Of a stretch of 64,000 nucleotides of DNA, positions 1 to 28,783 are shown one piece after another (positions within the stretch are counted from its first letter, which is position 1; every line of letters begins with the position of its first letter). The position numbers and the translations under genes were made by a program. The stretch covers positions 70,058 through 134,057 of the forward strand of contig DATIKU010000049.1 in assembly GCA_035477215.1 (NCBI GenBank). The letters are read 5' to 3'. The stretch is from Spirochaetota bacterium (GTDB taxonomy: Bacteria; Spirochaetota; UBA4802; UBA5368). The notes beneath the pieces are model-generated. The model saw nothing but the letters and a program-made list of their open reading frames with translations, was not told where the DNA came from and ran no database searches.

Positions 1-796
1 AGGAACATTTCTAGCGGTGGGAAGGGTATGGAGCCCAGTATCGTGAAATCCCTCCACAGTGTCGAGAAATCAGGGGAGGTGAAAATGTTGCCGTCATAGG
101 TCGGCCAGGGGATTTCGCCAAACAGCGGTCCCAGGATGACGGCGAGCGCGAGCGCGGGCATCATGCCGAGGTTCCCGAGATAGTAGGCCCATCGGTGTTT
201 ACGGCGAAAGGACTTGAAGCTTTCGGAGAAAATGAGGTAGAAGGCCAGCCCCACACATACGCTGATTGTAATCGGGCTGGTGCTGAAGCTCCGTATACCC
301 TGTTTCGCGGGATCGAAGATGAGCATCACGGCGGCAAATCCCGCGCCTATAAGGATGGCCGACTGCACCGCATTCGGTATGAGGGCGATGAACCGCCTGG
401 CGAGGCCTGTGAGGCCAAGCACGATGCAGAAGACGCCGAATGTCATCTCGAAGGCGATGAGGGCCTGCATTCGCTCGACGCCCATGGGGAAGGTCTCGCA
501 GTAGGCAATCAGGAGCGGTATGGCCGGAGTCACCCAGCCGGGTACAACGGGATCACCGAAGGTGACATGCGCCAGGTACAACGCCCCGTTAAGAATGACG
601 ATGGCCAGTGCGACCTCGAAGGACATGCCGAGCTTGGCGGTGAGCACCGTGATGATAGAGAGGCATACGGTGCACATCAGAAGACCCTGCGCAAAATCGG
701 CCCATTCGAATCGATAATGAATAAACGGCACTCTCAGCATCAGCGGGCCCAGGGGTATGCCGGGCTGGACCGCACCGAACTCTCTCTTGATGCTCA
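1..796 (-). CDS. Polytopic membrane protein (putative substrate transporter), partial; its C-terminus runs past the window start.
   Basis: I read the reverse-strand ORF myself; it is absent from the ORF track because it has no in-window stop. It begins MSIKRELGAVQPGIPLGPLM. It is hydrophobic with multiple predicted TM helices. A strong GGAGGAGGAGG RBS precedes ATG 796-794. It sits directly downstream of abfT on the same strand. Confidence 0.55.
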
Positions 797-925
797 TACT
801 CAATCCTCCTCCTCCTGTCTATTTATCATGTCTTTCAGGTCGTGTGAGTGAGACCGCTCCCCGGACATTTTTAATACGAGTTTTTCCGTTCATTAACGGA
901 GCGCTTCTCAGCGGATATCACCGCC

Positions 926-2221
926 TTATTGTTTATACCTCTCTTGAAAACGTTTCGAGAGCTCTTCCCGAAAATCCGGATGCGCGATCGCGATCAGTGC
1001 CTCAGCCCTCTGCTTCACCGTCCTTCCATACAGCTCGGCGATTCCGTACTCGGTAACGATAAAGTGAATATCGGTTCGGGGGGTAGTCACCGCCGCGCCT
1101 TCGTCTATTAGGGGCACTATTTTGGATATTTTTCCACCCGAGGCTGTCGAGTGGAAGGCGAGGATCGATCGTCCTCCCCTGGACCAGGCGGCGCCGCGTA
1201 CGAAATCCCCCTGGCCTCCCGATCCGCTGAACTGTCGGTAACCGATGGTGTCGGAAACGGCCTGCCCGAGAAGGTCGACCTGCAGCGCCGAATTGATTGA
1301 AACCATGTTGTCGTTTCGCGCTATGATGGCGGGATTGTTGGTGTAGTCGACGGGATACATTTCCACCATGGGATTGTTGTTCACGAAGCGGTAGAGCTTT
1401 TCGCTGCCCATGAAGAAGGTGGCGATCATTTTGCCGGGGTGGAAATTTTTCCGGGCGCAGGTTATGACGCCGGAATTGACCAGATCCACCACTCCGTCCG
1501 CGAACATCTCGGTATGTATTCCGAGGTCCTTCTTGTGTTTCAGGAAACAGAGCACCGCGTCGGGTACGGCGCCGATGCCGAGCTGCAGGCAGTCGCCGTC
1601 GCGGATGAGCTCCGCGCAGAACTTTCCGATCTTTTCGTCGTTCGCGGTAATTTTGGGAGGCGAGAGAATGATCGGTTTCGAATCGGTCTCGACGATACAG
1701 TCGACCTTGGATACATGGATGAAGGAGTTCCCGAGCGTTCGCGGCATGTGCGGGCTTACCTCTGCGATAACCAGTTTCGAGTTCTCGGCGGCGGGCTTGG
1801 TGTAGTCGACCGAGATGCCGTAGGAACAGAAACCATGCTCGTCGGGTGCGGAGAGCATGCAAAGCGTTACGTCCACCGGCAGTATCTTCTCCGCGAAAAG
1901 GCGCGGGATCTGGCTGAAGTGACAGGGGGTGAATACCGCTCTCGCCTGGTTGATGGATTCCCGGCTGGAGGTGCCGGCGAACAGCGAGTTGTGAAGGAAA
2001 TGATTGCCGTTTTCGGTGCGGCAATACTCAGAAGGGCCCATCGCCACCATGTGAACGATCTCGACCTTGTTATAAGCATCGCGGTTATCCATCATGGCCC
2101 GCAGCAGCACCTCCGGTGAGCCGCTGGCATGCCCCACGACCACGCGGTCGCCGGATTTTATACGGCGCACGGCCTCGGCCGCCGTTGTCAGTTTGCCCCT
2201 GTAAACATTCTTCCAGTCCAT
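926..2221 (-). CDS. abfT: 4-hydroxybutyrate CoA-transferase (acetyl-CoA hydrolase/transferase family).
   Basis: The 431-aa product matches the AbfT/Cat2 family along its full length. GAGGAGG RBS 5 nt upstream. Confidence 0.85.
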   Translation of the reverse strand: MDWKNVYRGKLTTAAEAVRRIKSGDRVVVGHASGSPEVLLRAMMDNRDAYNKVEIVHMVAMGPSEYCRTENGNHFLHNSLFAGTSSRESINQARAVFTPCHFSQIPRLFAEKILPVDVTLCMLSAPDEHGFCSYGISVDYTKPAAENSKLVIAEVSPHMPRTLGNSFIHVSKVDCIVETDSKPIILSPPKITANDEKIGKFCAELIRDGDCLQLGIGAVPDAVLCFLKHKKDLGIHTEMFADGVVDLVNSGVITCARKNFHPGKMIATFFMGSEKLYRFVNNNPMVEMYPVDYTNNPAIIARNDNMVSINSALQVDLLGQAVSDTIGYRQFSGSGGQGDFVRGAAWSRGGRSILAFHSTASGGKISKIVPLIDEGAAVTTPRTDIHFIVTEYGIAELYGRTVKQRAEALIAIAHPDFREELSKRFQERYKQ

Positions 2222-2259: not shown

Positions 2260-2553
2260 TCAAGGCCGGCCACGGTGCATATCATCAATAAACTGCCTCG
2301 CGTCCTCTTCGCAGGTCAGGATCCTGACGGTCCGACCCTCCGATGAGGGTCTGTCGGCGCATGCCGTTTTGCATCCGGTGACGACCAGTATAATGTCGGC
2401 GTTCTCATCATCCCAGCGCGTCAGCGTCGCGCCGTGCGGCAGGTTTCGGCGGATGTACCCGACCGCCTCGACGCGATCGTACCGTGGGTTGCATCCGCCG
2501 CAGTACTTGATCCCGATTCTGTGTATTATGGCGCTTAATCCTCTATGCCGCAA
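2260..2553 (-). CDS. Small Cys-motif protein (CGGC ... GCKTAC); possible metal or FeS binding.
   Basis: 97-aa ORF with a TTG start that overlaps the abfD stop by 19 nt. Motifs KYCGGCNP and TGCKTAC. It is sandwiched between abfD and abfT. No obvious SD. Confidence 0.4.
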   Translation of the reverse strand: MRHRGLSAIIHRIGIKYCGGCNPRYDRVEAVGYIRRNLPHGATLTRWDDENADIILVVTGCKTACADRPSSEGRTVRILTCEEDARQFIDDMHRGRP

Positions 2554-3998
2554 AGATGTTTGGCGAGCTTCTGCTTCTGCTTCAGGTTGACCTGCCTGGC
2601 GATCATGATGCGCTGGGCCTGCGGGGAACCCGCGCCGTGCATCGATTCGGTCAGGTATCCGACCGCCGCCGTGCCCATCGTGATGTTTTCGATGAGCCGG
2701 AGGATACGGCAGCGGTTCTCGGTCGGGACGTCCGCTCTGCCCGCGTAGTACTTGTTGAGCCAGTTCCCGACGAGCGGCGACTTGAAGTCTTTCTCCGAAG
2801 GGAGAGTCACCATGAGACCGCCGGCGATGTCCTGCGCCAGGCGCGCGATCTCATAGGGGAAGCGCGTGATGTTCTGCTTGTGAACGTTGGCGAGCAGGGT
2901 GTTGACGTAATACGTGCCGGATGGCTCTTTGTGTCCCTCGGACGCGCAGGCGATGCAGCCGCAATAAAGGGTCTCGTTGAGATGGTTCATCTCGATGATC
3001 TTGTCTTTTACATGGGAGGCCTTCTCCGCGCCGTTGTACTCGGCCGCGGTCTGGGCGGCACCGATGAGGACATCGCCAACACCGACCTTGCACGCGTAGC
3101 TCTGGCGGTGGTACGAGGCGAACTGCTCGACGAGCTGCCCGGAGAAATCGTATTCCCTGTACATGAAGACCCGCTCCCATGGAACGAACACGTTATCGAA
3201 GACCACCAGGGCCTCGTGTCCGCCGAATAACTGGTTTCCCCTGTCGACGCCACCCTCCTCGAGCTTGCGGGTGTCGCACGACTGGCGGCCCATGATATAA
3301 GTGATCCCCTTCGCGTCCGAGGGCAGGGCGAATGATATCGCGAAGTCTTTATCTTCCTCCCTCATGGAGATGGTCGGCATCACGATGATCTCGTGCGAGT
3401 TTACCGCACCGGTCTGGTGCGCCTTCGCGCCGCGCACCACTATGCCGTCCTTTCTTTCCTCGACGACATGCAAAAAGAGGTCGGGGTCGGCCTGCTGATG
3501 GGGGGGCAGTCCCCTGTTTCCCTTCGGATCGGTCATGGCCCCGTCGCACACCAGGTCGTTGTTCTGGACATATTCGAGATATTTGAGAAAGCGCTTGTTG
3601 TATTGCGTACCGTATTTTTTGTCGATATCGTAGGTGACCATCGAGAGGGCGTTCATCGCGTCCATCCCCACGCACCGCTGAAAGCAGCATCCGGTGAGCG
3701 AGCCGAGCAGCCGGCCCATCTTGCTCTTCTTAACCAGGTCTTCCGTGCTCTGGTGTATGTGGCAGAACCGGTTGATCTTCTTTCCGGTGATGTGCGATGT
3801 CGCGGTCATGAGGTCTTCATATTCGGGCATGTGCGCCAGTTTGTAGGTCATGGCCACGGCGTTCATTGACGGGCGAATGATGGGGTCGTCGACCACGTTT
3901 TTCACCCTCTCGCCGAACATATATACAACCAGATTGAGTTTTCTAAGGCTCTCTTCGTATTCCTCCGCCGTTTTCAGGGCCATTTTTTCGTTCTTCAT
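2535..3998 (-). CDS. abfD: 4-hydroxybutyryl-CoA dehydratase / vinylacetyl-CoA delta-isomerase.
   Basis: 487 aa. The full-length alignment to Clostridium aminobutyricum AbfD is near-colinear: AEEYEESLRKLN, GMDAMNA, HVKDKIIEMNHLNETLYCG, ESMHGAGSPQAQRIMIARQ. Confidence 0.92.
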   Translation of the reverse strand: MKNEKMALKTAEEYEESLRKLNLVVYMFGERVKNVVDDPIIRPSMNAVAMTYKLAHMPEYEDLMTATSHITGKKINRFCHIHQSTEDLVKKSKMGRLLGSLTGCCFQRCVGMDAMNALSMVTYDIDKKYGTQYNKRFLKYLEYVQNNDLVCDGAMTDPKGNRGLPPHQQADPDLFLHVVEERKDGIVVRGAKAHQTGAVNSHEIIVMPTISMREEDKDFAISFALPSDAKGITYIMGRQSCDTRKLEEGGVDRGNQLFGGHEALVVFDNVFVPWERVFMYREYDFSGQLVEQFASYHRQSYACKVGVGDVLIGAAQTAAEYNGAEKASHVKDKIIEMNHLNETLYCGCIACASEGHKEPSGTYYVNTLLANVHKQNITRFPYEIARLAQDIAGGLMVTLPSEKDFKSPLVGNWLNKYYAGRADVPTENRCRILRLIENITMGTAAVGYLTESMHGAGSPQAQRIMIARQVNLKQKQKLAKHLCGIED

Positions 3999-4242
3999 GC
4001 TTGGCTCTCCTCATAATGATTTTGATCGTTTCAACCGCCTGGATCCCGCTTGAGTCCGTTCCAGTACTCCCGGAATCCTTCCGCCAATATCGCGGTGAGG
4101 TTTGTTGGCTTACGGGGGTACTGCAAAAGCTCAGGCCCCTTCCCGGAAACGCCGTTATCGGCGGGCGGAAAAAGGCGCACAATGGTGCGGAGTATTCCCC
4201 GTCTCCACGCCATTGTGGAGGATTATAATCAGTCGTTATCTC

Positions 4243-5280
4243 CTACAGTTCGTACAGTTTCGGCGCCAGTGGCTTGTTGCTCCAGTATTTCGGATCGTGC
4301 GAAGGAACGATCTCGACGTTCGGTCCCATCCACTTCATCACCTTGAACATGTAAAGCGCCTGGCTCGACTGCGGAATGTCCCATGCGAGTCCGGGAGGAA
4401 TGGCCTCATACATATTCTCAAGCGTGTACTCGGCATCTGCGCACAGGATGGTCACCGCACCGTTGCTCTGTTTGACCATCAGTGACTGGTGGCCGGGAGT
4501 GTGCCCCGGAGTCGGGAAGAGCACAACCGACTGGTCGCCGAACAGGTCGTGTACGCCGTCGACGGTCTTAATATTCAGCTTGTTCATTTTCGCAAAATCA
4601 CCCGGAATATATGCTGTCGTGACACCGGTGGCTTTGTTTTTCGCCATTTCGTCTTTGATGACCTGCAGCTCCTTCTTCTGGAAGTACAGCGGCACGCCGG
4701 TACCTACGAAATTATCGATGGCGCCGGCATGGTCCAGGTGGCCGTGACTCAAGATGACGGCCTTGAGGTCTTTGGGGCGGATGCCGAGCGCCTTGTCGAT
4801 TTGGATCTTGAATTCCTCGAAATCCTTCATTACCGGGGTGTAGGCCTTGACTATCGGCGCGGTCCAGTATCCCACCGGGTCTTTCGCCACCATGGCATTG
4901 TTTCCCGTATCAAAAGCCACCCAGTCCTTGCCGTGACGGATCATGAAAAAGGTCACCGGAATATCCATGGGCGTGCCAACGCGGGTGTCTTTCAGCATGT
5001 ACTGGGTCTGGGTTTTGAGTATTCCGCACTTGAAGGCGTACACGTCGGCAAGGCCCGACTTCGAGACCCTCGGTTGCGTCGCGGGAGCGGCGGCGAACGC
5101 GGCACCGGCCTTTCCCATCATCGTCTCGAGGAGCGGCACGGAAGCGACCACGGCAAGGCTCTTCCCCATGTGGCGTAAGAAGTCCCGCCGGTCTAGCTCG
5201 CTGCCGGAAGCGGCCTGGTCGATGAACGTTCCGCTCGCGTCGTTTCTGGATTCCTGCGGCTCAAGAGTTTTACTGTTCAT
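4243..5280 (-). CDS. MBL-fold metallo-hydrolase (AHL-lactonase-like) with a Tat signal peptide.
   Basis: Start ATG 5280 with an AAAGGAG RBS. Twin-arginine motif RRDFLRHMG followed by a hydrophobic stretch. HxHxDH motif SHGHLDHAG. Confidence 0.8.
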   Translation of the reverse strand: MNSKTLEPQESRNDASGTFIDQAASGSELDRRDFLRHMGKSLAVVASVPLLETMMGKAGAAFAAAPATQPRVSKSGLADVYAFKCGILKTQTQYMLKDTRVGTPMDIPVTFFMIRHGKDWVAFDTGNNAMVAKDPVGYWTAPIVKAYTPVMKDFEEFKIQIDKALGIRPKDLKAVILSHGHLDHAGAIDNFVGTGVPLYFQKKELQVIKDEMAKNKATGVTTAYIPGDFAKMNKLNIKTVDGVHDLFGDQSVVLFPTPGHTPGHQSLMVKQSNGAVTILCADAEYTLENMYEAIPPGLAWDIPQSSQALYMFKVMKWMGPNVEIVPSHDPKYWSNKPLAPKLYEL

Positions 5281-5363
5281 AATTCGCTCCTTTTTGTAAA
5301 ATTTTTCTGCGCTCTTTCGTCGGGCAAGAGCGCAGATGCACGAACTGAAATAACCCCGGGGCG

Positions 5364-6200
5364 TTACAGTGAATACGAAGCCCCGAACGTCGCCCACCAG
5401 CGATACGTGTCTTTTATGTTCCCGGTAAAGGCGTTGTTGTTGAAATCACTGGATGGAATATACGCGAAATTAATACTGCCGTTAAATGATACACCGCTCG
5501 CGCTCGTGGAAAGCTTCGCGGACGCGACCACATCGCTGATTCCCTTCATCTCCATCGAGTTCCAGTCGAAATACGCAGCTGAGAGTCCCAGTCCCAGTGA
5601 GCTTCCATCTACCAGCTTGAAGGATTGCCCCAGGGAAAGTTTGACATAATGGTTTTTTCCGCGCTCGCCGTTGACCGTAACGTCCTTGTCCACGAAATAA
5701 TCATAGGCGTACGAGATGGTGGGATTCAACGGAATTGCCAGAATTGTAGCCGACGCTGTCCCCTCCCACCAGTCCCATTTATAGCCGAGCTTATCGTCGC
5801 TGTTGTAAAACCAGTAATACCAGCCGCTCACTCCTATTGCAACCACCTTCTCGACGGTGTACGCATATGCCACATTCCAGTGTGCGCCATTGTAGGCCAC
5901 ATTGCCCTGTTCCCGTCCGGTGTCATTCATGCCGGTGCCGTCTCCCAGCGTTTCCGAGCCGTACTGACCCATATACATCAGGCTTAATCCCGTTTTTCCG
6001 ATGCCGAAATACACATAGGGGAAAAACACACCATTGCCCGCTCCAAAGAAATCCAGACCCCTCCAGAAATAATTATTCCAGAACTCGACGCCCGCGGTGA
6101 TTCCCAGGGGAGTTGTCTCCTGCGCATGTACGGCACGCGAAGAGCCAAGCGCGCCTATGATGATGCAGGCGCTTAAAAGGACTGCCATTGATTTTCGCAT
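5364..6200 (-). CDS. Secreted / outer-membrane beta-barrel-like protein.
   Basis: Start ATG 6200, 5 nt after GGAGG. Signal peptide MRKSMAVLLSACIIIGALGSSRAVHA. Aromatic-rich alternating pattern with WW/YY motifs. Confidence 0.6.
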   Translation of the reverse strand: MRKSMAVLLSACIIIGALGSSRAVHAQETTPLGITAGVEFWNNYFWRGLDFFGAGNGVFFPYVYFGIGKTGLSLMYMGQYGSETLGDGTGMNDTGREQGNVAYNGAHWNVAYAYTVEKVVAIGVSGWYYWFYNSDDKLGYKWDWWEGTASATILAIPLNPTISYAYDYFVDKDVTVNGERGKNHYVKLSLGQSFKLVDGSSLGLGLSAAYFDWNSMEMKGISDVVASAKLSTSASGVSFNGSINFAYIPSSDFNNNAFTGNIKDTYRWWATFGASYSL

Positions 6201-6299
6201 CCATACCTCCATAAAGCAATTTTTATTATTTTAGCCAGCAGCAACTCTTCCAGCGTTGGTGCGCGTGCGATTTGGAATTATTGCCCTGCTTACCTAATA

Positions 6300-6314
6300 G
6301 CAAGTTCCGTGCCA
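6300..6314 (-). promoter_or_regulatory. Sigma54 (-24/-12) promoter for the OMP plus MBL-hydrolase operon.
   Basis: The minus strand reads TGGCACG-GAAC-TTGCT, an exact fit to TGGCACG-N4-TTGCW. It lies about 100 nt upstream of the OMP start. Confidence 0.75.
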
Positions 6315-6822
6315 GCCGGTAATGATGCCGGAAAGAAGGATGTATATGTTTTCCGGAAGGGAGAGAGGTCAAAAGGGCCCCCAGTGTGCGCCGTGGGACG
6401 TTATCATCATAGGTGGCGAGCTTAAACCCGGCCGTTTGCGCAGGATTGTTCAGCAATCTCCAGCAGTCGCGTTCAGGCGGCGACGCGCTTGGGCTTGTTT
6501 CACGCAGGTACGCTCCGGCGCTTGTTTTGTATTGGATTGAGACGATTGATATTGTTGCAAAAATGCATCAATTCGGGGTCTTTCAAATATTACCGGGCGA
6601 AATAGGGCATGCCATCTGTTAAAATCTTAATAATGGGCTTTGAAATAGTGATTTCTGCCATTTGCCGGGTGTTTGTGGAATTTTGAAAACAAATCAAAAT
6701 TCTTAATGGAGCTCGTCTGTGCATTTAGCCCCGGCCATTGATTTTAAACGTTGAAAAATCCGGCAGTGTTCAAGGAAGTGTGGGATTGTTAACGTACATG
6801 CATGAAGTACATGGAGATGAAA

Positions 6823-6860
6823 GGGAAACTCTTGTTGCATTCAAGCAACAAGAGTTTCCC
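6823..6860 (-). terminator. Perfect 16-bp stem / 6-nt loop hairpin; likely intrinsic terminator for tatA.
   Basis: gggaaactcttgttgc-attcaa-gcaacaagagtttccc. It is 15 nt past the tatA stop and is followed on the minus strand by TTTCATCTCC. Confidence 0.55.
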
Positions 6861-6874
6861 GAATGCAACAAATC

Positions 6875-7045
6875 TTACGGAAGCTGTTTCTTCTTATCGG
6901 TTTCTTCTTCTCCGCTGATTCCCTTCTTGAATTCCCGTATGCCGCCGGCGATATCCTTCGCGAGGCGCGGAATCTTTCCCGCACCGAAGATCAGAAGAAG
7001 GATGCAAAAAATGATCACAAGTTCCCAGATTCCTGGCATTCCCAT
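6875..7045 (-). CDS. tatA: Twin-arginine translocase subunit TatA/E.
   Basis: MGMPGIWELVIIFCILLLIFGAGKIPRLAKDIAGGIREFKKG matches TatA across its whole length, and GGAGGA sits upstream. The longer track ORF is an upstream extension. Confidence 0.85.
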   Translation of the reverse strand: MGMPGIWELVIIFCILLLIFGAGKIPRLAKDIAGGIREFKKGISGEEETDKKKQLP

Positions 7046-7192
7046 AGCATCCTCCAAGAGAGTGTACGTAAAATAAGCCTTCATCATGTACGCCAAATAC
7101 ATGCCTCGTTCCACCACCGGCGTCTGTCCGATACAACCCTCTTCCCTGATGATTGCCGAACCGGCTGGCGGAACCGGCACAGGTAGTATAAA

Positions 7193-7207
7193 GCAAGTCC
7201 CGTGCCA
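7193..7207 (-). promoter_or_regulatory. Sigma54 (-24/-12) promoter upstream of tatA.
   Basis: The minus strand reads TGGCACG-GGAC-TTGCTT, nearly identical to the promoter at 6300-6314. It lies about 150 nt upstream of tatA and 83 nt downstream of the EBP stop. Confidence 0.75.
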
Positions 7208-7289
7208 GTCGGCCGGTTCCTGTGCGTATTCATACGCGCCGAAAGCAATGGTGCTTCTTGTGCACCACCTTGCACCGCGCCGCCGTAGG

Positions 7290-9395
7290 TCACCGGGAGA
7301 TTTTGTCCGTATGGGATATGCCGTATCTGGCGGCCTTCCTGACGATGGTCGACGCGTCGATCTTCAGCTCCCTGGCCATTTCCCGTGTGGTCTTGTACGA
7401 GGCGTACGCCTTCTCCAGAAGCTGTTTTTCCACGCTCATCACCGCGTCGTTCAGGGGCATCAGGGATGTTACCAGCACCCGGGCGATATTCCCGGACGTG
7501 CCATTGCCCAAAATCAACGGAATATCATCCTTGGTTATCTCGTCCCCGGATGCCATGACCATCATGCGCTCTACAAGATTTTTAAGCTCCCGGATGTTGC
7601 CGGGCCAGTCGTAGCCCATGCAAATATCGATTACTTCGGGGGCTATCCTCCGTGTCATGGTGTGGTTTTTATTCAGCATCGAAACGAAATGCGCGATCAG
7701 GTAAGGGATATCCTCCTTCCGTTCCCGCAGAGGTGGGATATTCAAAGGCACTACGTTAAGTCGATAATAGAGATCCTCCCGGAACTCCTGCTGGTGTACC
7801 ATTTCGAGTATACCCCTGTTCGTGGCGGCGATGACTCGCACATCCAGGCGATGGGGCTTGTGTCCGCCCACGCGGGTGATCTCCTTGGACTCGAGGACGC
7901 GCAGCAGTTTGGCCTGGAGATTGAACGGCATTTCGGCGATTTCGTCCAAAAAAATCGACCCGCCGTTGGCAATCTCGAAGTATCCTGGCTTTCCGCCTTT
8001 TCTGGCCCCGGTAAACGCCCCGGTCTCATAGCCGAAGAGTTCGGATTCGATAAGGTTTTCCGGAATTGCCCCACAGTTCACTTTAATGAGTGGTTTCCCG
8101 GCCCGGGTGCTGTGATTGTGTATATATTCCGCGATGAGTTCCTTGCCGGTACCGGTCTCGCCCGTTATGAGCACCGAGGAATTGACATGGGCTATTCGGC
8201 AAACCGTATCCATAAGGTTTTTCATCTTCGATGAGACTCCGACTATCTTGTCAAATGCGTTAAATTTCTTCTTTAAGTCACTCAACTCGCTTTGGTAAAT
8301 CCCGGCGAGTTTTTCGCTTTCATCAAGTTTCAGTATCAGTGATTTGAGTTCGGTGATGTCCCTGACGTTGGTGACGACGCGGATGATGTTTCCTTCCTCG
8401 TCGAACACCGGGCTCCCGGTGACGAGGAGGGTTTTGCCGGTCTTCGTTTCCTGATATATGGTCTGTTGCTCTCTCTTCTTTAGGACCAGCAGGGTGACCG
8501 ACTGCGAGAAAAACCCTTCCTTCACGAGGTCCCTCATGTTGCGCCCGTAGAACGAGGGGCAGGGGAGACCCGTTATCGTCTCGTAGGCCTTGTTTATCCT
8601 CAGTACATTCGCGTCGCCATCGGTCACCCAAATGCCGTCGTATGACGACTCGATGATGGCATCCAGGTCCCTGTTCAACTCCTTCACGTTTTCCAGTTCG
8701 TGCGAGATGGCCTCAAGGTCGGTGACGTCCTGGAAGCGGTAGACGGCTCCGACGATCTGCCCATATTTTTCGATCGGGTACGCACCCATTATGTACGGCC
8801 GCCCCTTTACCGAGACCTTCTGCAGCGGGGCCGCTTTCCCGGTTACCAGCACCCCGGCTACATCGATATCGGGGAAAAGTTCCGTTATTTTTCTGCCCCG
8901 TGCCTCTTCCTCCCTTATCCCCATTATTTTCACGGCCGCCTGGTTGAACATGTTGATAGCCGTTAAGCCGTCCACGGAGATTATCATGTACGATGTGGAA
9001 TTGATGATGGCATGGAATTCGCCGAGCATCTTCTGGTTATGTTCCGCGACCGCACGGGCGAAACCGGTTCTCGTGATGATGCCCGCGATGTTGCCGTTCT
9101 CCATGACCGGAAGCTGACCCTGCTCGAAATATACAAGGTCTTCAACCCTGTCGTCGGGGTGCCCCGTGATGACCTCCCTGTTCATCAGGGATTCCACCGG
9201 TGCCTTCAGGTCGAGTGACTGACTGACCGCCCGGTTGATGTGCCGGTTGGTGAAAAGGCCGAGCAGTGTGCCATCGGCGTCCGCGACCGGTGCACTGTCT
9301 ATGCGGTACTGGACAAATAAAGCGGCGGCTTCCTGTATGGTGTGCTCGCTCTTTAGAATCAGAGGATCGGACGTCATTATTTCCCTGAGCTTCAT
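7290..9395 (-). CDS. Sigma54-dependent transcriptional activator with CBS pair, PAS domains, AAA+ sigma54-interaction domain and Fis-type HTH.
   Basis: Walker A GETGTGKE. GAFTGA motif present (ETGAFTGA). ESELFGY. C-terminal HTH. Probable start MKLREIM. Confidence 0.9.
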   Translation of the reverse strand: MKLREIMTSDPLILKSEHTIQEAAALFVQYRIDSAPVADADGTLLGLFTNRHINRAVSQSLDLKAPVESLMNREVITGHPDDRVEDLVYFEQGQLPVMENGNIAGIITRTGFARAVAEHNQKMLGEFHAIINSTSYMIISVDGLTAINMFNQAAVKIMGIREEEARGRKITELFPDIDVAGVLVTGKAAPLQKVSVKGRPYIMGAYPIEKYGQIVGAVYRFQDVTDLEAISHELENVKELNRDLDAIIESSYDGIWVTDGDANVLRINKAYETITGLPCPSFYGRNMRDLVKEGFFSQSVTLLVLKKREQQTIYQETKTGKTLLVTGSPVFDEEGNIIRVVTNVRDITELKSLILKLDESEKLAGIYQSELSDLKKKFNAFDKIVGVSSKMKNLMDTVCRIAHVNSSVLITGETGTGKELIAEYIHNHSTRAGKPLIKVNCGAIPENLIESELFGYETGAFTGARKGGKPGYFEIANGGSIFLDEIAEMPFNLQAKLLRVLESKEITRVGGHKPHRLDVRVIAATNRGILEMVHQQEFREDLYYRLNVVPLNIPPLRERKEDIPYLIAHFVSMLNKNHTMTRRIAPEVIDICMGYDWPGNIRELKNLVERMMVMASGDEITKDDIPLILGNGTSGNIARVLVTSLMPLNDAVMSVEKQLLEKAYASYKTTREMARELKIDASTIVRKAARYGISHTDKISR

Positions 9396-11980: not shown

Positions 11981-12250
11981 ATGAAAGAAGGGGGGCGTGT
12001 GTCTGCGGGTACCGTTTTGCGCGCCCGCCTTCGTTACTATGCCGCGCTCGTATTTTTCGCGGCCGGAATCCTTTACGCGCTGTTTCCGCTCGACCTGATA
12101 CCCGATATACTGGGGCCGCTCGGCTGGGTGGACGATATCGGCGTGCTGTTCGTTATGTTTGTCTTCGCCCTGCGCTCGTACCGCCGCTTGAAGCTCTCAC
12201 GGGAGGCGCTCAGCGATCGCCGTCCTCAAAACAAACGATCTCCTGGCTGA
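11981..12250 (+). CDS. DUF1232 (YkvA-like) membrane protein.
   Basis: LDLIPDILGPLGWVDDIGVL motif. ATG 11981 lies 16 nt after the previous stop. Confidence 0.65.
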   Translation: MKEGGRVSAGTVLRARLRYYAALVFFAAGILYALFPLDLIPDILGPLGWVDDIGVLFVMFVFALRSYRRLKLSREALSDRRPQNKRSPG

Positions 12251-14804
12251 TGATGTCCGAAACCAATACGAGTTCTTTTTCTATATCGTATACACTTACG
12301 ACTTCCGCGTAGCGCTCCTCGTCGGGTAGGATCTTCGCGAGCATGTTCGGCCTGGCCGCGATGTAGGCCTGGTTGAATACGGTCCCCTTGTTCTCGGGAA
12401 AAAGCGCCACATAGAAGATATCGGTCTCGACGAGGTCCTGGAAAAAGTGCGTGCCGAACGAGAGTTCCGGCACCAGGTCGTCGCGCATGCTGGCGATTTC
12501 CATGAGGACGGCGATATTGTTGATCTCAGAAAAACGGACCGGCACGCCGAGCGATGGCGTGGAGGTCCCCCAGCGTCCCGGTCCCATGAGGAGCGTGGGA
12601 AGAGCGGCCCGGCTTCCGTTCTGCCGGTTGAGCCTGCCGACGAGGCGCGCGATGTCGTATTTCTGCGAGAGCGGCAGCGTCCCGTAGGATTTGGGATCGA
12701 CGAGTATAATTCTTTTAATCCGTTGCATGATGTTTCCACCCATGAAGTAACCTTCCGAACGGAAGAGGGTTCGGGCCGGGTCGATCCGGGAGGGTATCTC
12801 CACCCGCTTCTCCTGCCACCTGGTTTGCTGCGGACGGCACTGAAGCAGGTTGATGTGATACGCCCCGTCCCTGTCGAAGTTTACGGTAAACTCGATGTCC
12901 ACGGGATAGGAGTAGGCCCTCTCGATAGTTCTCATCAGACGCTGCATATCGGCGGCGAAAGCGGTGTCGGCGAGGAGGCGCTCGAAGGTGAGCACCCACG
13001 ACCTGGGCTCGGAACGCCCCATGTCCCTGAGCCGCTGTTCGGACTCGAGATCACGCACCGCCATAAGCTCCATGGGTATCTCGACGCCCTGGTCGAGGAG
13101 CGAGGCCAGGGGGACCGTGCGGATATCGTTGGCCGGAATATCGAGAATGTCCACGTCGTGCTGCGAGAATTTACGCGCATCTTCCATTCCGGCGTGCGGA
13201 CGGGTCAGCGGCGAGTCGAGCGCCACGATCAGCGGGTAATCGCCCTCTACGCGGTTGACCGCCCGCGTGCCGAGGCCGAGCACCAGCCGGAGCATGCCGG
13301 CCTTCGGGTCCATCTCGCTCTTCCAGACGAACGTATTGTACGACATGCCGACGCCGCCCATGTCCGGAAAGAAATAGTTTCCGTGATGCGATCCGGAGAC
13401 GCGCTGGACCAGGAGCGCCATCTGCTCGTCCAGCTGGTCCAGGCCCCGCTGCAGCCGGTAGGTGAGGGCGTCCACGTCCATGGTGCTTGCGAAGACCCGG
13501 CGGACCGCATCGACGAAAGCCGCGAGGCGCTGGGCGGGCGAGCCCTGGTTGACGCAGAAAAAGCTGTCGTATTTGCCGGCGAAGGCGTTGCCGAACGCGT
13601 CCTCCAGCAGGCTCGAGGAGCGGACGATGAACGGCGACTGGCCGAAATACTCGATGATATACTGAAACTTTTCCTTTACCTCGTCGGGGAAGGTTCCGGT
13701 GAGCATTTTTTCATGAAGCTCGGAGGCGGCCTTGAAATATCCATCCCCGGTCTTGTGCTCCATGAACGGTTTCCACCATCCGTTCTGAACGATATACGTA
13801 TAGAAGACATCCGAACCGATGTAGAACGAATCGTGCGGTTCGAGCAGGTCGTTCCACCTCGAGTCTTCGGAGCCGGTCAGAATCTTGCGGGCCAGAAGCA
13901 TCCCAACGGCCTTTCCGCCGATATAGCCGGTGCCGATGAGCCGGTCCTTGAGGTTGAGGAAGTCCTCAAGGGCGAGATGCCGCGTGGCGAGCGAAAGAAT
14001 GCGTTCATCGCGCCCTATTATAACCCTGCAGAGGTGGTCGATCATCTCCTCGCGCTTCTCGCGGTCCCACGGGCTCCAGTGGAGGTCCTCGGCTTTTAAA
14101 AACAGCCTGTCCCAATAGTCGAGGTTGCGCCGCGTGCCGCCCGCCCCCTTCTGCTGAACGTGTTGGATGAGACGCGCGGCGTCCACGCTGTTGGTGACGG
14201 GAGTGAGGCTGTCGTTTTTTTGGAGATGGGGGAAAAACATCGTCGGCGAATAACGGTTCCACACTTTCAGGGGATGGATGTAGTAGCTTCCCTCCGAGTT
14301 GTAGACGTCGATGAGCACCTGCGTTGTCTCCCTTATGCGCGCGATGCTCTTGAACGAGAGGCTGTTGCGTAGAATGGCGAAATAGGCGATGGTATTGAGT
14401 TCAAAAAGGTAGGGACAGGTCACCATGAAGAAGTTGCCGATCATAAGGTCGGTCGCCCAGGCCGATTGAAGGTCGGAGAGGCAGTCGAAGACGTAATAAA
14501 TCTCCTCGCCCTCGCTCTTGATGATGGAATGCACCTCGGTCGAAAACGATTCGAAACCGCTGAACGAGTCGAGCGTATATATCTCACTGTACTGGCCGGG
14601 CAGCAAAATCGGCTGGTGCTGGGCGAAGCGCATGTAGACCACGCGCCGGCCCTCGGCGAGCGCGTTGTGAATATAGGGAGTGGCGAACTGGAAGTAGTCC
14701 GTGATTTCGTCCACCTGCCAAACCACGTTGTCGCCGATGCGGAGATTGTTGATGACCCGGTCGAGACCGGGTATGCCGGTGCTGCTTTCCAGGGGCGATT
14801 TCAT
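12210..14804 (-). CDS. Large PPDK_N (PEP/pyruvate-binding ATP-grasp) domain protein with a KaiC/RecA-like N-terminal region lacking a P-loop.
   Basis: Central GYIGGKAVGMLLARKIL ... VRSSSLLEDAFGNAFAGKYDSF. No PEP-utilizer His motif. N-terminus TGIPGLDRVINNLRIGDNVVWQVDE. Probable start MKSPLE at 14804. Confidence 0.75.
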   Translation of the reverse strand: MKSPLESSTGIPGLDRVINNLRIGDNVVWQVDEITDYFQFATPYIHNALAEGRRVVYMRFAQHQPILLPGQYSEIYTLDSFSGFESFSTEVHSIIKSEGEEIYYVFDCLSDLQSAWATDLMIGNFFMVTCPYLFELNTIAYFAILRNSLSFKSIARIRETTQVLIDVYNSEGSYYIHPLKVWNRYSPTMFFPHLQKNDSLTPVTNSVDAARLIQHVQQKGAGGTRRNLDYWDRLFLKAEDLHWSPWDREKREEMIDHLCRVIIGRDERILSLATRHLALEDFLNLKDRLIGTGYIGGKAVGMLLARKILTGSEDSRWNDLLEPHDSFYIGSDVFYTYIVQNGWWKPFMEHKTGDGYFKAASELHEKMLTGTFPDEVKEKFQYIIEYFGQSPFIVRSSSLLEDAFGNAFAGKYDSFFCVNQGSPAQRLAAFVDAVRRVFASTMDVDALTYRLQRGLDQLDEQMALLVQRVSGSHHGNYFFPDMGGVGMSYNTFVWKSEMDPKAGMLRLVLGLGTRAVNRVEGDYPLIVALDSPLTRPHAGMEDARKFSQHDVDILDIPANDIRTVPLASLLDQGVEIPMELMAVRDLESEQRLRDMGRSEPRSWVLTFERLLADTAFAADMQRLMRTIERAYSYPVDIEFTVNFDRDGAYHINLLQCRPQQTRWQEKRVEIPSRIDPARTLFRSEGYFMGGNIMQRIKRIILVDPKSYGTLPLSQKYDIARLVGRLNRQNGSRAALPTLLMGPGRWGTSTPSLGVPVRFSEINNIAVLMEIASMRDDLVPELSFGTHFFQDLVETDIFYVALFPENKGTVFNQAYIAARPNMLAKILPDEERYAEVVSVYDIEKELVLVSDIISQEIVCFEDGDR

Positions 14805-14985
14805 TGGCCACTTCCGGTCGGTACGAGTTTGATGTGGATCGGCTTTTTTATCATGCGGGAGCGGCGTTGTCAAGATATTTCCGGCGGACGCGCGTGACGG
14901 CGCGATAAAATTCGGGTTGCGCACCGCGTGAAACCCGGTACGGTGGATACAGATTTGTGTCAATCCCCGCTGCGGAGTAAACTAT

Positions 14986-20240: not shown

Positions 20241-23543
<3,303 letters not shown>

Positions 23544-25593: not shown

Positions 25594-27246
25594 TCAGGTT
25601 TCCTCCGCGTTTCGTCTGAATACCTTTCGGGTCAGCGCCGTTATAAGCATCCATAGCTTTACGAGGATGAGCTTCAGGAACTGCCCGACGCTCCCCTCTC
25701 CCATGTCCATGGCCAGGAGCATCCGGGCCTTCCGCATCTCTTTGGTGGTCAGGGACCGGCTCTGTAGCTGCATCTCCTTGAGCCTCTTTTTGACCTCCTT
25801 TCGTGCGAGCTTCATCGTCTCCTTGTCTTCGTCATAACCCTTCATGGCCTGTATCATCTTGAGAAGCCCCGGGTCTTCGAGCATCCTCTGCTTTATTTCC
25901 CGGACCCTGGCGTCGGCATTCCTTAATACCGGGTTCTTGTTGTTGCCCCCGTATTCCATCAGCAGCTCGAGGTACTGTCCCAGAAAATAAGCCTGCTTAT
26001 AGAGGCGCTCCCGCTCCTCCTGGGTGCGCGCCTTGAGATCGATGCGGTGGAGTTCATCGACGGCGGTCTCGATCGAATCGAGCATCTCGTCGGTGAGCTT
26101 GAAGAGCTCGTAGGGCTCGAGGTCCTTGATCTCGACGAATCGCTGCGAAACTTCCCGCAAGTCGTTGAACATCCGCTCCGAGAAATCGAGCAAATAGCGG
26201 TAGGCCCGGCGTTCCTTCGGCAGGAGCACGCTGTCGTCCGCCTCGCCCCCGGCTTTCGCCATCTTTTTCTTGATTTCCTTTATGTTGACCGAAGAGGGGT
26301 CAAAATCGATCTTCGAAAACTCGAGCGTCTTTTTCATCTCGAAGAAGTTGGGCTCGGCCAGGTCGTCGCCTATTTTGAGGACGTTGAGCTTGATGTCGGC
26401 GAGTTTGTTCTTCATCCCGTATTTGTCGATTTTGCTGATGCCGTCGGTCACCACGAGGATCTCCGCGTTGATGAGTTCCTTGTCGAAGCGGATGTCCTCA
26501 ATGGCCTGGTATACGGCCCCCTGCAGATTGGTGCTCGTTCCGCCCGTGGTGGTGAGGAGCACCTTTTCTATCAATACGGGGAAGTCCTCCTTTTTTTCGA
26601 TCTTTACGAGGTCGCCGGTCTTGGTGTCGAAGGGCCGGTAGAAAATCTTCGCGTTGCTGTTGAGTTTCCTTCGAAGGAATTCCGCCACGAGGCACTTGGA
26701 GAAAAACGAGCGCATCTTGAAGTCCATCGAACGCGAGCGGTCAAGGAGCAGGTAGAATTTCTGGTCGAAACGGTTGGCCTGCCGGCCCGATTCGTCGCGT
26801 AGCGTCGATATGGGTTTGAACGAATCGGCCCTGGTCTCGAAAAAGCGCTGCACAAGGAGCGTCCGCTTGAAGAGCTTGATGTCGAATATATCGTCATCGA
26901 GGGCGAGCTCTCTGGGAAGCGTGCGCTTGAGGTCGTAGATCGTGCGGTAGGTGTCGATGACCATGTTGTCCGACAGCGGCGATACCTTTTCCATACGGTT
27001 GACAAGGATCGTTTCATCGCGGTCGGGGGCCTCGATCTTCTCCTCCTTGGAAATGTCCTCTATGGCCAGAAGGGCCTCCGAGATGAAGTCGGGGGTGAAT
27101 ACCACGCGCGCGATCTCAAAGATCATGAAAAACTTCGCGGGGAGTATGACCTGGAGATTGTCGAAAAAGCCGAGGGAATCCCAGTACTCGATAAAGTCGA
27201 GGCTGGGGCGCTCCGGCCCTCGGATCGATGTGATCGTGCCCGTCAT
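25594..27246 (-). CDS. vWA (MIDAS) domain protein with a long helical C-terminal region.
   Basis: MIDAS DRSRSMD ... TTGGTSTNL ... ILVVTDGIS. Lies 21 nt downstream of the AAA+ gene. Confidence 0.8.
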   Translation of the reverse strand: MTGTITSIRGPERPSLDFIEYWDSLGFFDNLQVILPAKFFMIFEIARVVFTPDFISEALLAIEDISKEEKIEAPDRDETILVNRMEKVSPLSDNMVIDTYRTIYDLKRTLPRELALDDDIFDIKLFKRTLLVQRFFETRADSFKPISTLRDESGRQANRFDQKFYLLLDRSRSMDFKMRSFFSKCLVAEFLRRKLNSNAKIFYRPFDTKTGDLVKIEKKEDFPVLIEKVLLTTTGGTSTNLQGAVYQAIEDIRFDKELINAEILVVTDGISKIDKYGMKNKLADIKLNVLKIGDDLAEPNFFEMKKTLEFSKIDFDPSSVNIKEIKKKMAKAGGEADDSVLLPKERRAYRYLLDFSERMFNDLREVSQRFVEIKDLEPYELFKLTDEMLDSIETAVDELHRIDLKARTQEERERLYKQAYFLGQYLELLMEYGGNNKNPVLRNADARVREIKQRMLEDPGLLKMIQAMKGYDEDKETMKLARKEVKKRLKEMQLQSRSLTTKEMRKARMLLAMDMGEGSVGQFLKLILVKLWMLITALTRKVFRRNAEET

Positions 27247-27267
27247 GCTAACGTACCTTTAAGGCCA

Positions 27268-28764
27268 TCACAAGAGGTCTTTAAAGTCCCTGAGTATCCC
27301 TTCCTTGAGCTCGCGCACCTCTTCGACCGCCGGATTGATTTCGGAAACATTGCTCTTCAGCGTTTCAATGGTTATTTCGTCCTCGGCCCTGAAACGGGAG
27401 GGGAATATCTTTTTAAGAAGGCCCTTCAGCCCCTCGATAAGGCCCCGGGCCTCTTTAAGACGGTCGCGCTTCTCGGGGTTCTCGCGGATATCCTGGAATA
27501 TCTTGCGGATGTTCAACAAAAACTCGATCTGCTGCGTTGTGCCGGTCGCGTTGAAATGCACCAGTGTCTGCTGATAGGCATCGAGGTAGACGTCCTTCTC
27601 GGACTTGTCTTTGGCCTTCACCGAGACGAAGCTGTTAAGTGTGCACAGTGCGAGGTACATGTTCTTGACGTCGTCCATGTTGACCTCGTAGCGTCCGTCG
27701 AGAATCGCCGTCGCCCTCAGGAAGTCGGCCAGCTTGGCCTGCTTCCGCGGGCTTATGAAGAAATTGTACTCGCTCTTTCGCATATCGCTCAGGAACTTGT
27801 TGGTGATCACGTTCTTCATGAAATAGATGAAGTCGGGGATCTCGACCCTGATGTCTTTGTTTTTGTTCCGTATGATGTCGGACAGGAAGACCACCTGGTT
27901 AAAGGGAATCTTGCGGTCGGGCTCGATGGCCTTGCCCCTGCTGAACGCGTACGTGTGGTCGATGAGGAGCTGCGAGTACGAGTTGTTGTCCTCGGGGATG
28001 ATCGATTTGTAGCTGAAGCGGTCCAGGACCGCCTCGGTGACCTCGTTCATGCGCATGTAGTTGGCGGTGGCGATGGCGGTGTGTATGGCCGTGTCGATGA
28101 TCTCCGAGCCGTTAATAAACTTGCGCTCGTTCAGCACCGTAAGGAGTGAGCGGAGCACCACGTCGCTCGCGTCGAAGAACTCGTCGAGGAACACGAGGTT
28201 GGCCTCGATGATCGATCCGTGAATGTTGTGTCGGATTCTACCCTTCTTGAACTCTTCGATGTTGTAGGGGCCAAAATAGTTGTCCGGGGTCTGCTCCTTG
28301 CTCGCCTGCGTCATGAAAACTCGCACCTGATCGAAGGTGTTGAAGATGTAGTTCGCCAGGTACGACTTCGCCATGCCCGTGCGGCTCAACAATAGCATGT
28401 GCTCGCGTGTGAGAATCGCGAACATTGACTGCTGTATAATCTCCTCGCGGTCGATGACGTTTTTTGCGATCCGGTCCATGTGCCAGCGCAGGTAGTCGAT
28501 CGTTGTGGGGATGTCGAAATTTTCCTTCTGGGCGGACACGGTGAAGGGTGCGATGCCGGTCTCGGATCCGGGTTTCTTCTCGGCCTGTTCCGAGATGACA
28601 TACTTGGAAGATGACCTCTCCTCCGCGGTCCTGCCGTGCGTCTCTTCTCCGGCCGTGAGCGACTCTTCCGCGGTGAAGATATAAAATCCGTCCTTCTCGA
28701 GCCTCGATTCGACGCTGGCGAGGCTCGTTTTCTGCATGGCCTGTTCCCTGATTCGGTTGGTCAT
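27268..28764 (-). CDS. MoxR/RavA-like AAA+ ATPase with variant Walker A (SRTGMAKS).
   Basis: Colinear with E. coli RavA: LLLSRTGMAKSYLA aligns with FLLGPPGIAKSLIA, VFLDEFFDAS is Walker B, and LNERKFINGSE aligns with INERQFRNGAH. I checked the P-loop codons in the DNA. Confidence 0.8.
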   Translation of the reverse strand: MTNRIREQAMQKTSLASVESRLEKDGFYIFTAEESLTAGEETHGRTAEERSSSKYVISEQAEKKPGSETGIAPFTVSAQKENFDIPTTIDYLRWHMDRIAKNVIDREEIIQQSMFAILTREHMLLLSRTGMAKSYLANYIFNTFDQVRVFMTQASKEQTPDNYFGPYNIEEFKKGRIRHNIHGSIIEANLVFLDEFFDASDVVLRSLLTVLNERKFINGSEIIDTAIHTAIATANYMRMNEVTEAVLDRFSYKSIIPEDNNSYSQLLIDHTYAFSRGKAIEPDRKIPFNQVVFLSDIIRNKNKDIRVEIPDFIYFMKNVITNKFLSDMRKSEYNFFISPRKQAKLADFLRATAILDGRYEVNMDDVKNMYLALCTLNSFVSVKAKDKSEKDVYLDAYQQTLVHFNATGTTQQIEFLLNIRKIFQDIRENPEKRDRLKEARGLIEGLKGLLKKIFPSRFRAEDEITIETLKSNVSEINPAVEEVRELKEGILRDFKDLL

Positions 28765-28783
28765 GATAAACCCTTTTACTCTC

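Follow-up and report, generated by a model that had tools for sequence, protein, structure and literature searches.

Several described systems resemble parts of the locus analysed here. In Agrobacterium, BlcC/AttM opens gamma-butyrolactone in the blcABC pathway (PMC5924552). Control of an abfD operon by sigma-54 and an enhancer-binding protein (EBP) has been predicted in Clostridiales, as the XanR regulon of Clostridium, and an upstream activating sequence (UAS) class of the form TGT-N10-12-ACA has been reported for PrdR and related EBPs (PMC6615313). The formate dehydrogenase (fdn) operon in the RpoN regulon of Geobacter sulfurreducens ends with a TatA/E gene, GSU0781 (PMC2725144). The present analysis concerns a stretch of 64,000 nucleotides (hereafter the window) from a Spirochaetota bacterium (assembly GCA_035477215.1, contig DATIKU010000049.1, positions 70,058 to 134,057), in which genes for an EBP, a TatA-family protein, an outer-membrane protein (OMP) and a lactonase of the metallo-beta-lactamase (MBL) fold are followed on the minus strand by abfD and abfT, with two sigma-54 promoters among them.

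The locus, from an uncultured anaerobic member of the Spirochaetota, is probably a module under sigma-54 control for the catabolism of a small gamma-lactone, with gamma-butyrolactone or 4-hydroxybutyrate as the most likely compound. A catabolic role is suggested because abfD, abfT and the gene for a membrane protein lie directly downstream of the lactonase gene, and the best reading of this arrangement is a predicted route from gamma-lactone through 4-hydroxybutyrate to crotonyl-CoA, the anaerobic counterpart of Agrobacterium blcABC. Judged by its gene neighbourhood, the locus would thus serve lactone or 4-hydroxybutyrate catabolism, and not primarily the quenching of N-acyl-homoserine lactone (AHL) signals or secretion. 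For comparison, 35 loci with lactonase relatives were fetched, one genome per species, and 8 more were obtained through exact-protein look-ups; these are cited below by L numbers.

Sigma-54 promoters and a candidate enhancer

The minus strand reads TGGCACGGGACTTGC from 7207 to 7193 and TGGCACGGAACTTGC from 6314 to 6300. Both sites match TGGCACG-N4-TTGCT and carry the GG and GC doublets of a sigma-54 -24/-12 element exactly 10 bp apart in TGGCAC-N5-TTGC. No other exact match to TGGCACG-N4-TTGC exists on either strand of the window; in dinucleotide-preserving shuffles the mean number of matches was 0.03, and not one shuffle in 100 gave two. Looser forms of the motif were not enriched in the window, and the signal is confined to the two sites. 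The two copies (6299-6319 and 7192-7212) are identical at 19 of 21 positions (90%), including bases that sigma-54 does not constrain. Each is intergenic, lies upstream of and in the same orientation as a gene, and is kept at orthologous loci. The promoter before the OMP gene, P_omp, is conserved in position in L002, L003, L033, L037, L038, L039, L043 and L044, and in L040, which has no OMP gene, an equivalent promoter stands directly before the lactonase. The promoter before tatA, P_tatA, is conserved in L003, L037, L043 and L044. Orthologous promoters are therefore kept in at least eight distinct spirochaete loci despite diverged flanks, the intergenic sequence around P_omp having diverged almost wholly in the more distant loci. 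Many deltaproteobacterial loci have a sigma-54 promoter with one mismatch directly 3' of the gene for an EBP homolog (38-46% identity) and 5' of the module. At the level of sequence, these comparisons confirm that the two sigma-54 promoters are real and conserved, far beyond chance. Their -12 region reads ATGTGC at both promoters of L037 (L037:4969 and L037:5882) and ACTTGC at both in the window (7207 and 6314), L003 and L044, which suggests that the two copies are kept matched, by gene conversion or by co-selection.

The first-pass annotation of this DNA had picked out the same pair as near-identical TGGCACG-N4-TTGCW elements, and its distances were reproduced (from P_omp to the OMP start codon at 6200, 100 nt; from P_tatA to the tatA start codon at 7045, 148 nt; between the EBP stop codon at 7290 and P_tatA, 83 nt). 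The start sites of both promoters given in Table 1 were derived from standard -24/-12 geometry. A sigma-70 consensus scan of the region found nothing above chance. Rfam found no match in 3900-7400, either at gathering thresholds in a run on the whole window or at E <= 1 on that stretch, so the long untranslated regions and the 560-nt spacer between tatA and the OMP gene hold no known riboswitch or small RNA.

The EBP has the features of a bacterial NtrC-type AAA+ activator, with an N-terminal sensory region (two CBS and two PAS domains), a Sigma54_activat domain (PF00158, 236 bits) with GAFTGA at residue 459 and AAA_lid_14, and a C-terminal helix-turn-helix (HTH). Pfam here agrees with the earlier description of a CBS-PAS activator, said to be the only EBP in the window, and no second EBP was found among the approximately 45 large open reading frames (ORFs). 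The best NCBIfam model was PrdR (NF041552), at 525.8 bits, which is below its cutoff of 795 and does not make the protein a PrdR. EBP orthologs of 38-93% identity adjoin the lactonase gene in many loci.

Candidate binding sites for this protein were found between the two promoters. The window contains five matches to TGTTGC-N6-GCAACA with at most two mismatches, compared with 1.57 expected (none of 100 shuffles reached five), and three of the five lie between P_tatA and P_omp. The tandem pair formed by sites 1 and 2, at a spacing of 18-20 bp, is kept in L003, L033, L013, L014, L031, L005, L008 and L032. Site 3 is kept in L003, L037 and L044, and an equivalent third site is present in L033 and in the deltaproteobacterial loci. 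A fixed layout was seen in L005, L008, L013, L014, L031 and L032, where the sites of the pair are 18-20 bp apart, the third site follows after a further 77-82 bp, and the -24 element after another 79-92 bp; the layout is similar in L006 and L026, and in the spirochaete loci the pair and the third site are retained with longer spacers. The arrangement thus holds across loci from Desulfobacterota to Spirochaetota. Of the 20 exact TTGC-N6-GCAA cores, 16 fall within 600 nt upstream of a module sigma-54 promoter, a space that makes up 1.7% of the approximately 590 kb fetched (binomial P ~3e-25, a value weakened as support by its treatment of related loci as independent and by the choice of the promoter set after inspection). 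Repeated dyads at a conserved position upstream of a sigma-54 promoter are what is expected of a UAS, and the TGT-N12-ACA form of the palindrome falls in the PrdR-type UAS class (PMC6615313). The palindromes are predicted to be binding sites of the EBP orthogroup and are likely to form an enhancer.

Loci from Syntrophobacteraceae probably use a different activator, because their EBP is shorter and divergently oriented and the palindrome is absent. The HTH recognition helices of EBPs with and without the palindrome array were too generic to discriminate between the two groups. The overlapping TTGTTGC repeats after tatA were also considered as a terminator/antiterminator switch, a candidate that was rejected when comparison across loci showed a conserved tandem enhancer pair. 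The spacer that contains the enhancer (6314-6875) has a G+C content of 46%, compared with 57% for the whole window. AT-rich tracts between sites 3 and 2 could favour DNA bending; no site of the integration host factor type was established there.

The tatA cassette and its control

The TIGR01411 score and the PF02416 match (Table 1) place the 56-residue product in the TatA/TatE family. Its gene is followed by an intrinsic terminator, the outer stem of which shows compensatory changes in L003. In three loci without tatA (L033, L038 and L039), the array of palindromes follows the EBP stop directly, and in L033 its first pair serves as the terminator of the EBP gene. In the tatA-bearing loci L003, L037 and L044, as in the window, the P_tatA-tatA cassette intervenes between the EBP stop and the same hairpin, which now terminates tatA. 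On the simplest history, the cassette looks like a secondary insertion that carries a copy of the P_omp core and that came to lie between the EBP stop and the EBP terminator/enhancer.

Among spirochaete loci with an intact upstream region, tatA accompanies the lactonase exactly where that enzyme has a twin-arginine translocation (Tat) signal (the window, L003, L037 and L043/L044); L033, L038/L039 and L040, with lactonase signals of the Sec or lipoprotein type, have no tatA. An independent linkage was found in a Geobacter metagenome-assembled genome (L030, 7673-8816). There, a string of genes for aldehyde:ferredoxin oxidoreductase (AOR), a binding protein, an ABC transporter and an iron alcohol dehydrogenase (Fe-ADH) ends with tatA and, 37 nt downstream of it, the gene for a lactonase with a Tat signal. 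At a further spirochaete locus (L004:1530-4440), small toxin-antitoxin-like ORFs replace the EBP, tatA and OMP genes upstream of the lactonase, and this locus was set aside as a test of the correlation on account of that replacement. In assembly GCA_053578275.1, the module tatA (L044) and a second tatA (L042:6001-7013) lie approximately 0.87 Mb apart on a single contig of 1.33 Mb. The second stands immediately before an FdhE-like gene, and its product is 71% identical to the TatA of the window; neither tatA adjoins tatC. Since a close relative has a second tatA elsewhere, the module gene is on this comparison an additional, dedicated paralog and not the sole TatA.

Sigma-54 control of tatA together with a Tat substrate had been interpreted in the first-pass annotation as a signal-dependent secretion module. 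The part of this proposal that stands is the association itself, in that the promoters are conserved and tatA tracks the Tat signal; the unit does not appear to be primarily one of secretion, and the downstream abfD and abfT had been missed. A signal-dependent supply of TatA for a Tat substrate is supported by the locus comparison as an accessory feature of one sub-lineage, and it has precedent. The position of the EBP gene just upstream of P_tatA had also been taken as the regulatory link, and this could not be upheld: the only candidate EBP sites lie downstream of tatA, between the promoters, with the enhancer approximately 355 bp downstream of P_tatA.

Control of tatA by the adjacent EBP is accordingly the weakest link and the least secure part of the proposal. 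It is an unlikely but serious possibility that this EBP controls P_omp only, that P_tatA is served by another EBP or is a weak or decaying copy, and that tatA is expressed mainly by read-through. It is sigma-54, and not the EBP, that recognises a -24/-12 element, and the likeness of the two promoters is therefore silent on the activator. P_tatA has no palindrome upstream of it. No terminator was found on the coding strand in the interval from the EBP stop to tatA, the ancestral terminator of the EBP gene having come to lie 3' of tatA, and because nothing of this kind separates the two genes tatA may in any case also be expressed by read-through from the EBP gene. Against restriction of the EBP to P_omp, P_tatA is intact in all of the tatA-bearing loci (L003, L037, L043 and L044), and the variant -12 region shared by the two L037 promoters suggests matched maintenance. 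Sigma-54 activators can also act from distant and from downstream sites, as the NtrC sites of glnAp2 do, so service of both promoters by one array is plausible.

Lactonase, downstream genes and the predicted pathway

The lactonase has the MBL-fold domain and an HxHxDH motif (SHGHLDH) that is invariant in 17 homologs. Its N-terminus carries the twin-arginine motif DRRDFLR, then a hydrophobic stretch and an AxA cleavage site, and, as DRRDFLRHMGKSLAVVASVPLL...AFA, has the form of a Tat substrate with predicted export; in the alignment of the 17 homologs one of the two arginines is invariant and the other nearly so. The best curated model is AttM (NF045700), at 153.7 bits against a cutoff of 390, which makes the protein a distant relative and not an equivalog, and the nearest solved structure is the AHL lactonase PDB 9kho (107 bits). 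Public annotation names the family "N-acyl homoserine lactonase family protein". The OMP family is limited to relatives of the source organism and comprises only 9 clusters among 5.8 billion. Its AF2 model has approximately 12 strands (pLDDT 72.7, pTM 0.70, a moderate confidence), and the best Foldseek matches are OmpG, NanC, COG4313 and FapF at TM ~0.5. A predicted outer-membrane channel therefore holds at the moderate confidence of that model. Both genes had been named from the letters alone, as an OMP and as a Tat-signal MBL hydrolase with an AHL-lactonase-like motif, and these assignments are borne out by the signal peptide, the predicted 12-strand barrel and porin fold matches of the one and by the SHGHLDH and twin-arginine motifs of the other.

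Downstream of the lactonase, AbfD retains the CxxxC motif and the downstream His and Cys when aligned with 1U8V, as expected of a true AbfD homolog; these residues correspond to the [4Fe-4S] ligands Cys99, Cys103, His292 and Cys299 of that structure. The AbfT assignment, like that of AbfD, is one of close homology over the full length (Table 1). A small Cys-rich ORF between them had no Pfam match itself; it shares 60% identity with its ortholog in L037, a protein tagged PF27236 (AF_0334), and in L016 and L040 a related segment separates abfD from abfT. The ORF may encode an accessory factor for the Fe-S dehydratase. The membrane protein that runs off the window edge is 93% identical by tblastn to L037:11481-12917. 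The L037 protein is in turn 52% identical over its full length to the product of the first gene after the sigma-54 promoter in L012, and homologs are the first gene 3' of such a promoter in L012, L034 and L016. In Spirochaetota, Desulfomonilaceae, Syntrophobacteraceae and Smithella, this 478-residue protein is encoded together with the lactonase, AbfD and AbfT. It is a candidate for a new transporter family for the hydroxy acid.

A long hairpin just 3' of the lactonase stop is near-invariant in L002 and L003, where its z-scores are -3.4 and -4.1; the window copy reaches only -1.65. The spacer 3' of it is much less conserved, and the hairpin has no Rfam match. Ahead of abfD, it may act in partial termination or may stabilise the mRNA. 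A third sigma-54 promoter, GGCCTGAGCTTTTGCA, was considered in this gap and rejected, as its GG-GC spacing is wrong and it is not conserved in L002.

Linkage of the lactonase to these catabolic genes spans three phyla. Of the 35 scanned loci, 15 encode homologs of both AbfD and AbfT within 10 kb of the lactonase gene, and the same holds for the window, L037-L040 and L043/L044; the loci come from Spirochaetota, Desulfomonilaceae, Syntrophobacteraceae and Smithella, and the gene order varies (lactonase-abfD-abfT, abfD-abfT-lactonase, or abfT-lactonase-abfD in L006). In a second version of the module (L009, L013, L028, L030 and L035), AbfD and AbfT are replaced by a LivK-type ABC or a TRAP binding protein, a 385-residue Fe-ADH and AOR, and the lactonases of the two versions are 55-65% identical. 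Both versions are chemically sensible if the lactonase yields a 4-hydroxy acid, which could either be activated and dehydrated to crotonyl-CoA or be oxidised through the semialdehyde to a dicarboxylate.

A mechanism can be proposed on this basis. The EBP would sense a pathway metabolite through its PAS and/or CBS domains, assemble on the palindrome array, and by DNA looping activate sigma-54 holoenzyme at P_omp, 250-540 bp downstream of the array, and, less certainly, at P_tatA, approximately 355 bp on the other side. P_omp would express the channel and the lactonase, and P_tatA would raise the supply of TatA for export of the folded metallo-lactonase. The lactone would then be hydrolysed in the periplasm to 4-hydroxybutyrate, and the hydroxy acid imported, probably by the unclassified membrane protein. 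AbfT would activate the 4-hydroxybutyrate, and AbfD would carry out the dehydration to crotonyl-CoA, which would enter fermentation. We hold only tentatively the fuller proposition that one three-site enhancer, partly inside the tatA terminator, serves two flanking co-directional sigma-54 promoters, and that a TatA paralog was in this way recruited, by promoter duplication and possibly gene conversion, into an undescribed periplasmic pathway of anaerobes from gamma-lactone to 4-hydroxybutyrate that includes new transporter and small porin families.

Several points weigh against this scheme, in addition to the limits of the enrichment value given above. A search of the approximately 45 large ORFs in the window found neither rpoN nor tatC. 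With the AttM model the lactonase stays well short of the cutoff, and its putative substrate is read from gene neighbourhood alone. The 245-nt gap between the lactonase and abfD contains a conserved hairpin and no sigma-54 motif, which leaves co-regulation of abfD-abfT putative. The spacing from the enhancer to P_omp is 250-540 bp, compared with 80-190 bp in the deltaproteobacterial loci, and sites 1 and 2 overlap the terminator hairpin, so that part of their conservation could reflect RNA structure and not protein binding. With no palindrome upstream of P_tatA, its activation would need sites 3' of tatA. The correlation between tatA and the Tat signal in spirochaetes amounts to roughly one evolutionary event, plus the Geobacter case, and no tatA lies within 4.4 kb of the Tat-signal lactonase of L004 (69% identity), a locus with a rearranged upstream region.

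The substrate may differ from the one proposed. That the same architecture handles another compound that yields a hydroxy acid, such as substituted gamma-lactones, delta-valerolactone, epsilon-caprolactone, or 4-hydroxybutyrate oligomers from polyhydroxyalkanoate or polyester, we regard as improbable, if deserving of attention. Gamma-butyrolactone crosses membranes freely, which makes periplasmic hydrolysis hard to explain; hydrolysis in that compartment, the outer-membrane channel, a TonB-dependent receptor (L026) and the solute-binding proteins would all fit a poorly permeant substrate, and the Fe-ADH and AOR version would handle any omega-hydroxy acid. Set against this, AbfD and AbfT are very close to characterised 4-hydroxybutyrate enzymes, so the product where they occur should be 4-hydroxybutyrate, and the lactonase is highly conserved between the two module versions.

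Lower still is the probability that we assign to quorum quenching, in which an exported AHL lactonase would destroy the signals of neighbours in the periplasm and abfD and abfT would be unrelated housekeeping genes of fermentation. The public name of the family, the AHL lactonases among the nearest structures and NCBIfam models (9kho, AiiA and AttM), a periplasmic placement suited to catching an external signal, and the cleavage of both gamma-butyrolactone and AHLs by BlcC (PMC5924552) speak for it. The scores to curated AHL-lactonase models are all far below cutoffs, however, N-acyl-homoserine, the product of AHL hydrolysis, is no substrate of AbfT or AbfD, and chance adjacency is inadequate to explain linkage to 4-hydroxy-acid enzymes and uptake genes across three phyla in shuffled orders. 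Finally, that the two sigma-54 motifs are chance matches or non-functional sequence, for which the lack of rpoN in the window might be cited, is very improbable indeed in view of two exact matches where 0.03 were expected, their position, orientation and conservation across diverged orthologous intergenic regions, the adjoining GAFTGA-bearing EBP and the enhancer array. A catabolic module for a small gamma-lactone under sigma-54 control remains the favoured reading.

Table 1. Features of the locus in window coordinates
Feature	Position	Strand	Details
Polytopic membrane protein	3..797	-	first 265 of 478 residues; no Pfam family; runs off window edge
AbfT, 4-hydroxybutyrate CoA-transferase	926..2221	-	PDB 3eh7 531.6 bits, 3gk7 460 bits
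Small Cys-rich ORF, 97 aa	2260..2553	-	CGGCNP...GCKTAC; overlaps abfD end, precedes abfT
AbfD, 4-hydroxybutyryl-CoA dehydratase / vinylacetyl-CoA isomerase	2535..3998	-	PDB 1U8V 722.7 bits
Long hairpin and U-run just 3' of lactonase stop	4165..4220	-	near-invariant in L002 (2254-2300) and L003 (9235-9285)
MBL-fold lactonase, 345 aa	4243..5280	-	Tat signal; AttM/BlcC-like; PF00753 61 bits
Predicted outer-membrane beta-barrel channel (OMP), 278 aa	5364..6200	-	Sec signal peptide; no Pfam/NCBIfam match
P_omp	6299..6314	-	TGGCACGGAACTTGCT; inferred start ~6288, 5' untranslated region ~88 nt
Predicted UAS site 3	6553..6570	.	TGATGC-ATTTTT-GCAACA, one mismatch; ~250 bp upstream of P_omp
tatA intrinsic terminator hairpin	6823..6860	-	16-bp stem, then TTTCATCT; -30.9 kcal/mol, z = -7.3
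Predicted UAS site 2	6833..6850	.	perfect palindrome TGTTGC-TTGAAT-GCAACA; forms top of tatA terminator hairpin
Predicted UAS site 1	6853..6870	.	degenerate palindrome TGTTGCATTCGGGAAACT; starts 20 bp before site 2
tatA/E-family gene, 56 aa	6875..7045	-	PF02416 55.5 bits; TIGR01411 63.3 bits (cutoff 53.9)
P_tatA	7192..7207	-	TGGCACGGGACTTGCT; inferred start ~7181, 5' untranslated region ~136 nt
Sigma-54 EBP, 701 aa	7290..9395	-	CBS pair, two PAS, Sigma54_activat AAA+ with GAFTGA, HTH_50

Other observations were made elsewhere in the window. A 917-residue protein (12210-14963, minus strand) matches the PPDK_N/phosphoenolpyruvate-synthase ATP-binding domain only in its centre, and its long N- and C-terminal regions belong to no family. 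A second, small cytoplasmic MBL-fold gene (22884-23543, plus strand), unrelated to the lactonase, lies directly after genes for homoserine dehydrogenase and a pyridoxal-phosphate-dependent, threonine-synthase-like protein. On the minus strand at 25594-30397, a MoxR-type AAA+ gene (27268-28764), assigned to the "MoxR-vWA-beta-propeller ternary system" family, lies between genes for a 550-residue protein without a family (25594-27246) and a PAS histidine kinase (28784-30397).

Comparison with known systems

If the favoured reading is correct, the locus would encode an anaerobic route for lactones of the gamma-butyrolactone type, in which an exported lactonase is followed by AbfT/AbfD or by Fe-ADH/AOR, and this route would be widespread in uncultured Spirochaetota and Desulfobacterota of digesters, peat and groundwater. 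The large "N-acyl homoserine lactonase" family would then probably be catabolic and not quorum-quenching. The sigma-54 regulator, with its predicted operator TGTTGC-N6-GCAACA in a fixed three-site layout, could possibly serve as a lactone/4-hydroxybutyrate biosensor, and the tatA cassette would be a compact natural case in which a gene of the export machinery and its cargo answer to one signal. Functional hypotheses are also gained for two unclassified families of membrane proteins, those of the 478-residue inner-membrane protein and the 278-residue barrel. Nothing relevant was found in the searchable literature on a lactonase linked to AbfD/AbfT, or on sigma-54 control of 4-hydroxybutyrate genes outside Clostridiales. 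The parts are known, namely the sigma-54/EBP regulon, blc-like lactone catabolism, the AbfT/AbfD pathway and substrate-linked TatA; no description of their combination was found in that literature.

The blcABC (attKLM) system of Agrobacterium tumefaciens resembles the locus in its MBL lactonase, AttM being the best model here, and in catabolism of the 4-hydroxy acid by co-encoded enzymes; the Fe-ADH and aldehyde oxidoreductase version would run the same route from 4-hydroxybutyrate through succinic semialdehyde to succinate. In contrast, BlcC is cytoplasmic and is controlled by the repressor BlcR, whereas the lactonases here are predicted to be exported (by Tat, or by Sec or as lipoproteins in relatives) under a sigma-54 EBP. 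The window route is also the anaerobic, CoA-dependent one of AbfT/AbfD, and the similarity to AttM is below the family cutoff.

Close homologs of AbfD and AbfT act in the 4-aminobutyrate/4-hydroxybutyrate fermentation of Clostridium aminobutyricum. Unlike the window locus, the clostridial abf systems have no lactonase, outer-membrane channel or tatA, and entry is through 4-aminobutyrate or succinate semialdehyde; the EBP of the clostridial XanR regulon may not be orthologous to that of the window. With PrdR, the activator of proline reductase in Clostridioides, the EBP shares its best model over the PAS-AAA+-HTH region and a fitting UAS class; it differs in scoring below the PrdR cutoff, in its target genes and in its N-terminal CBS pair.

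The closest parallels to the module tatA are TatA/E paralogs linked to a substrate, such as GSU0781 and E. coli TatE, in which an extra TatA-family gene is encoded and regulated with a Tat substrate; the second tatA of GCA_053578275.1 also adjoins an FdhE-like gene. Unlike GSU0781 and TatE, the tatA of the window is monocistronic and has its own copy of the substrate-operon promoter and its own terminator, in a position between the gene for the activator and the candidate enhancer.

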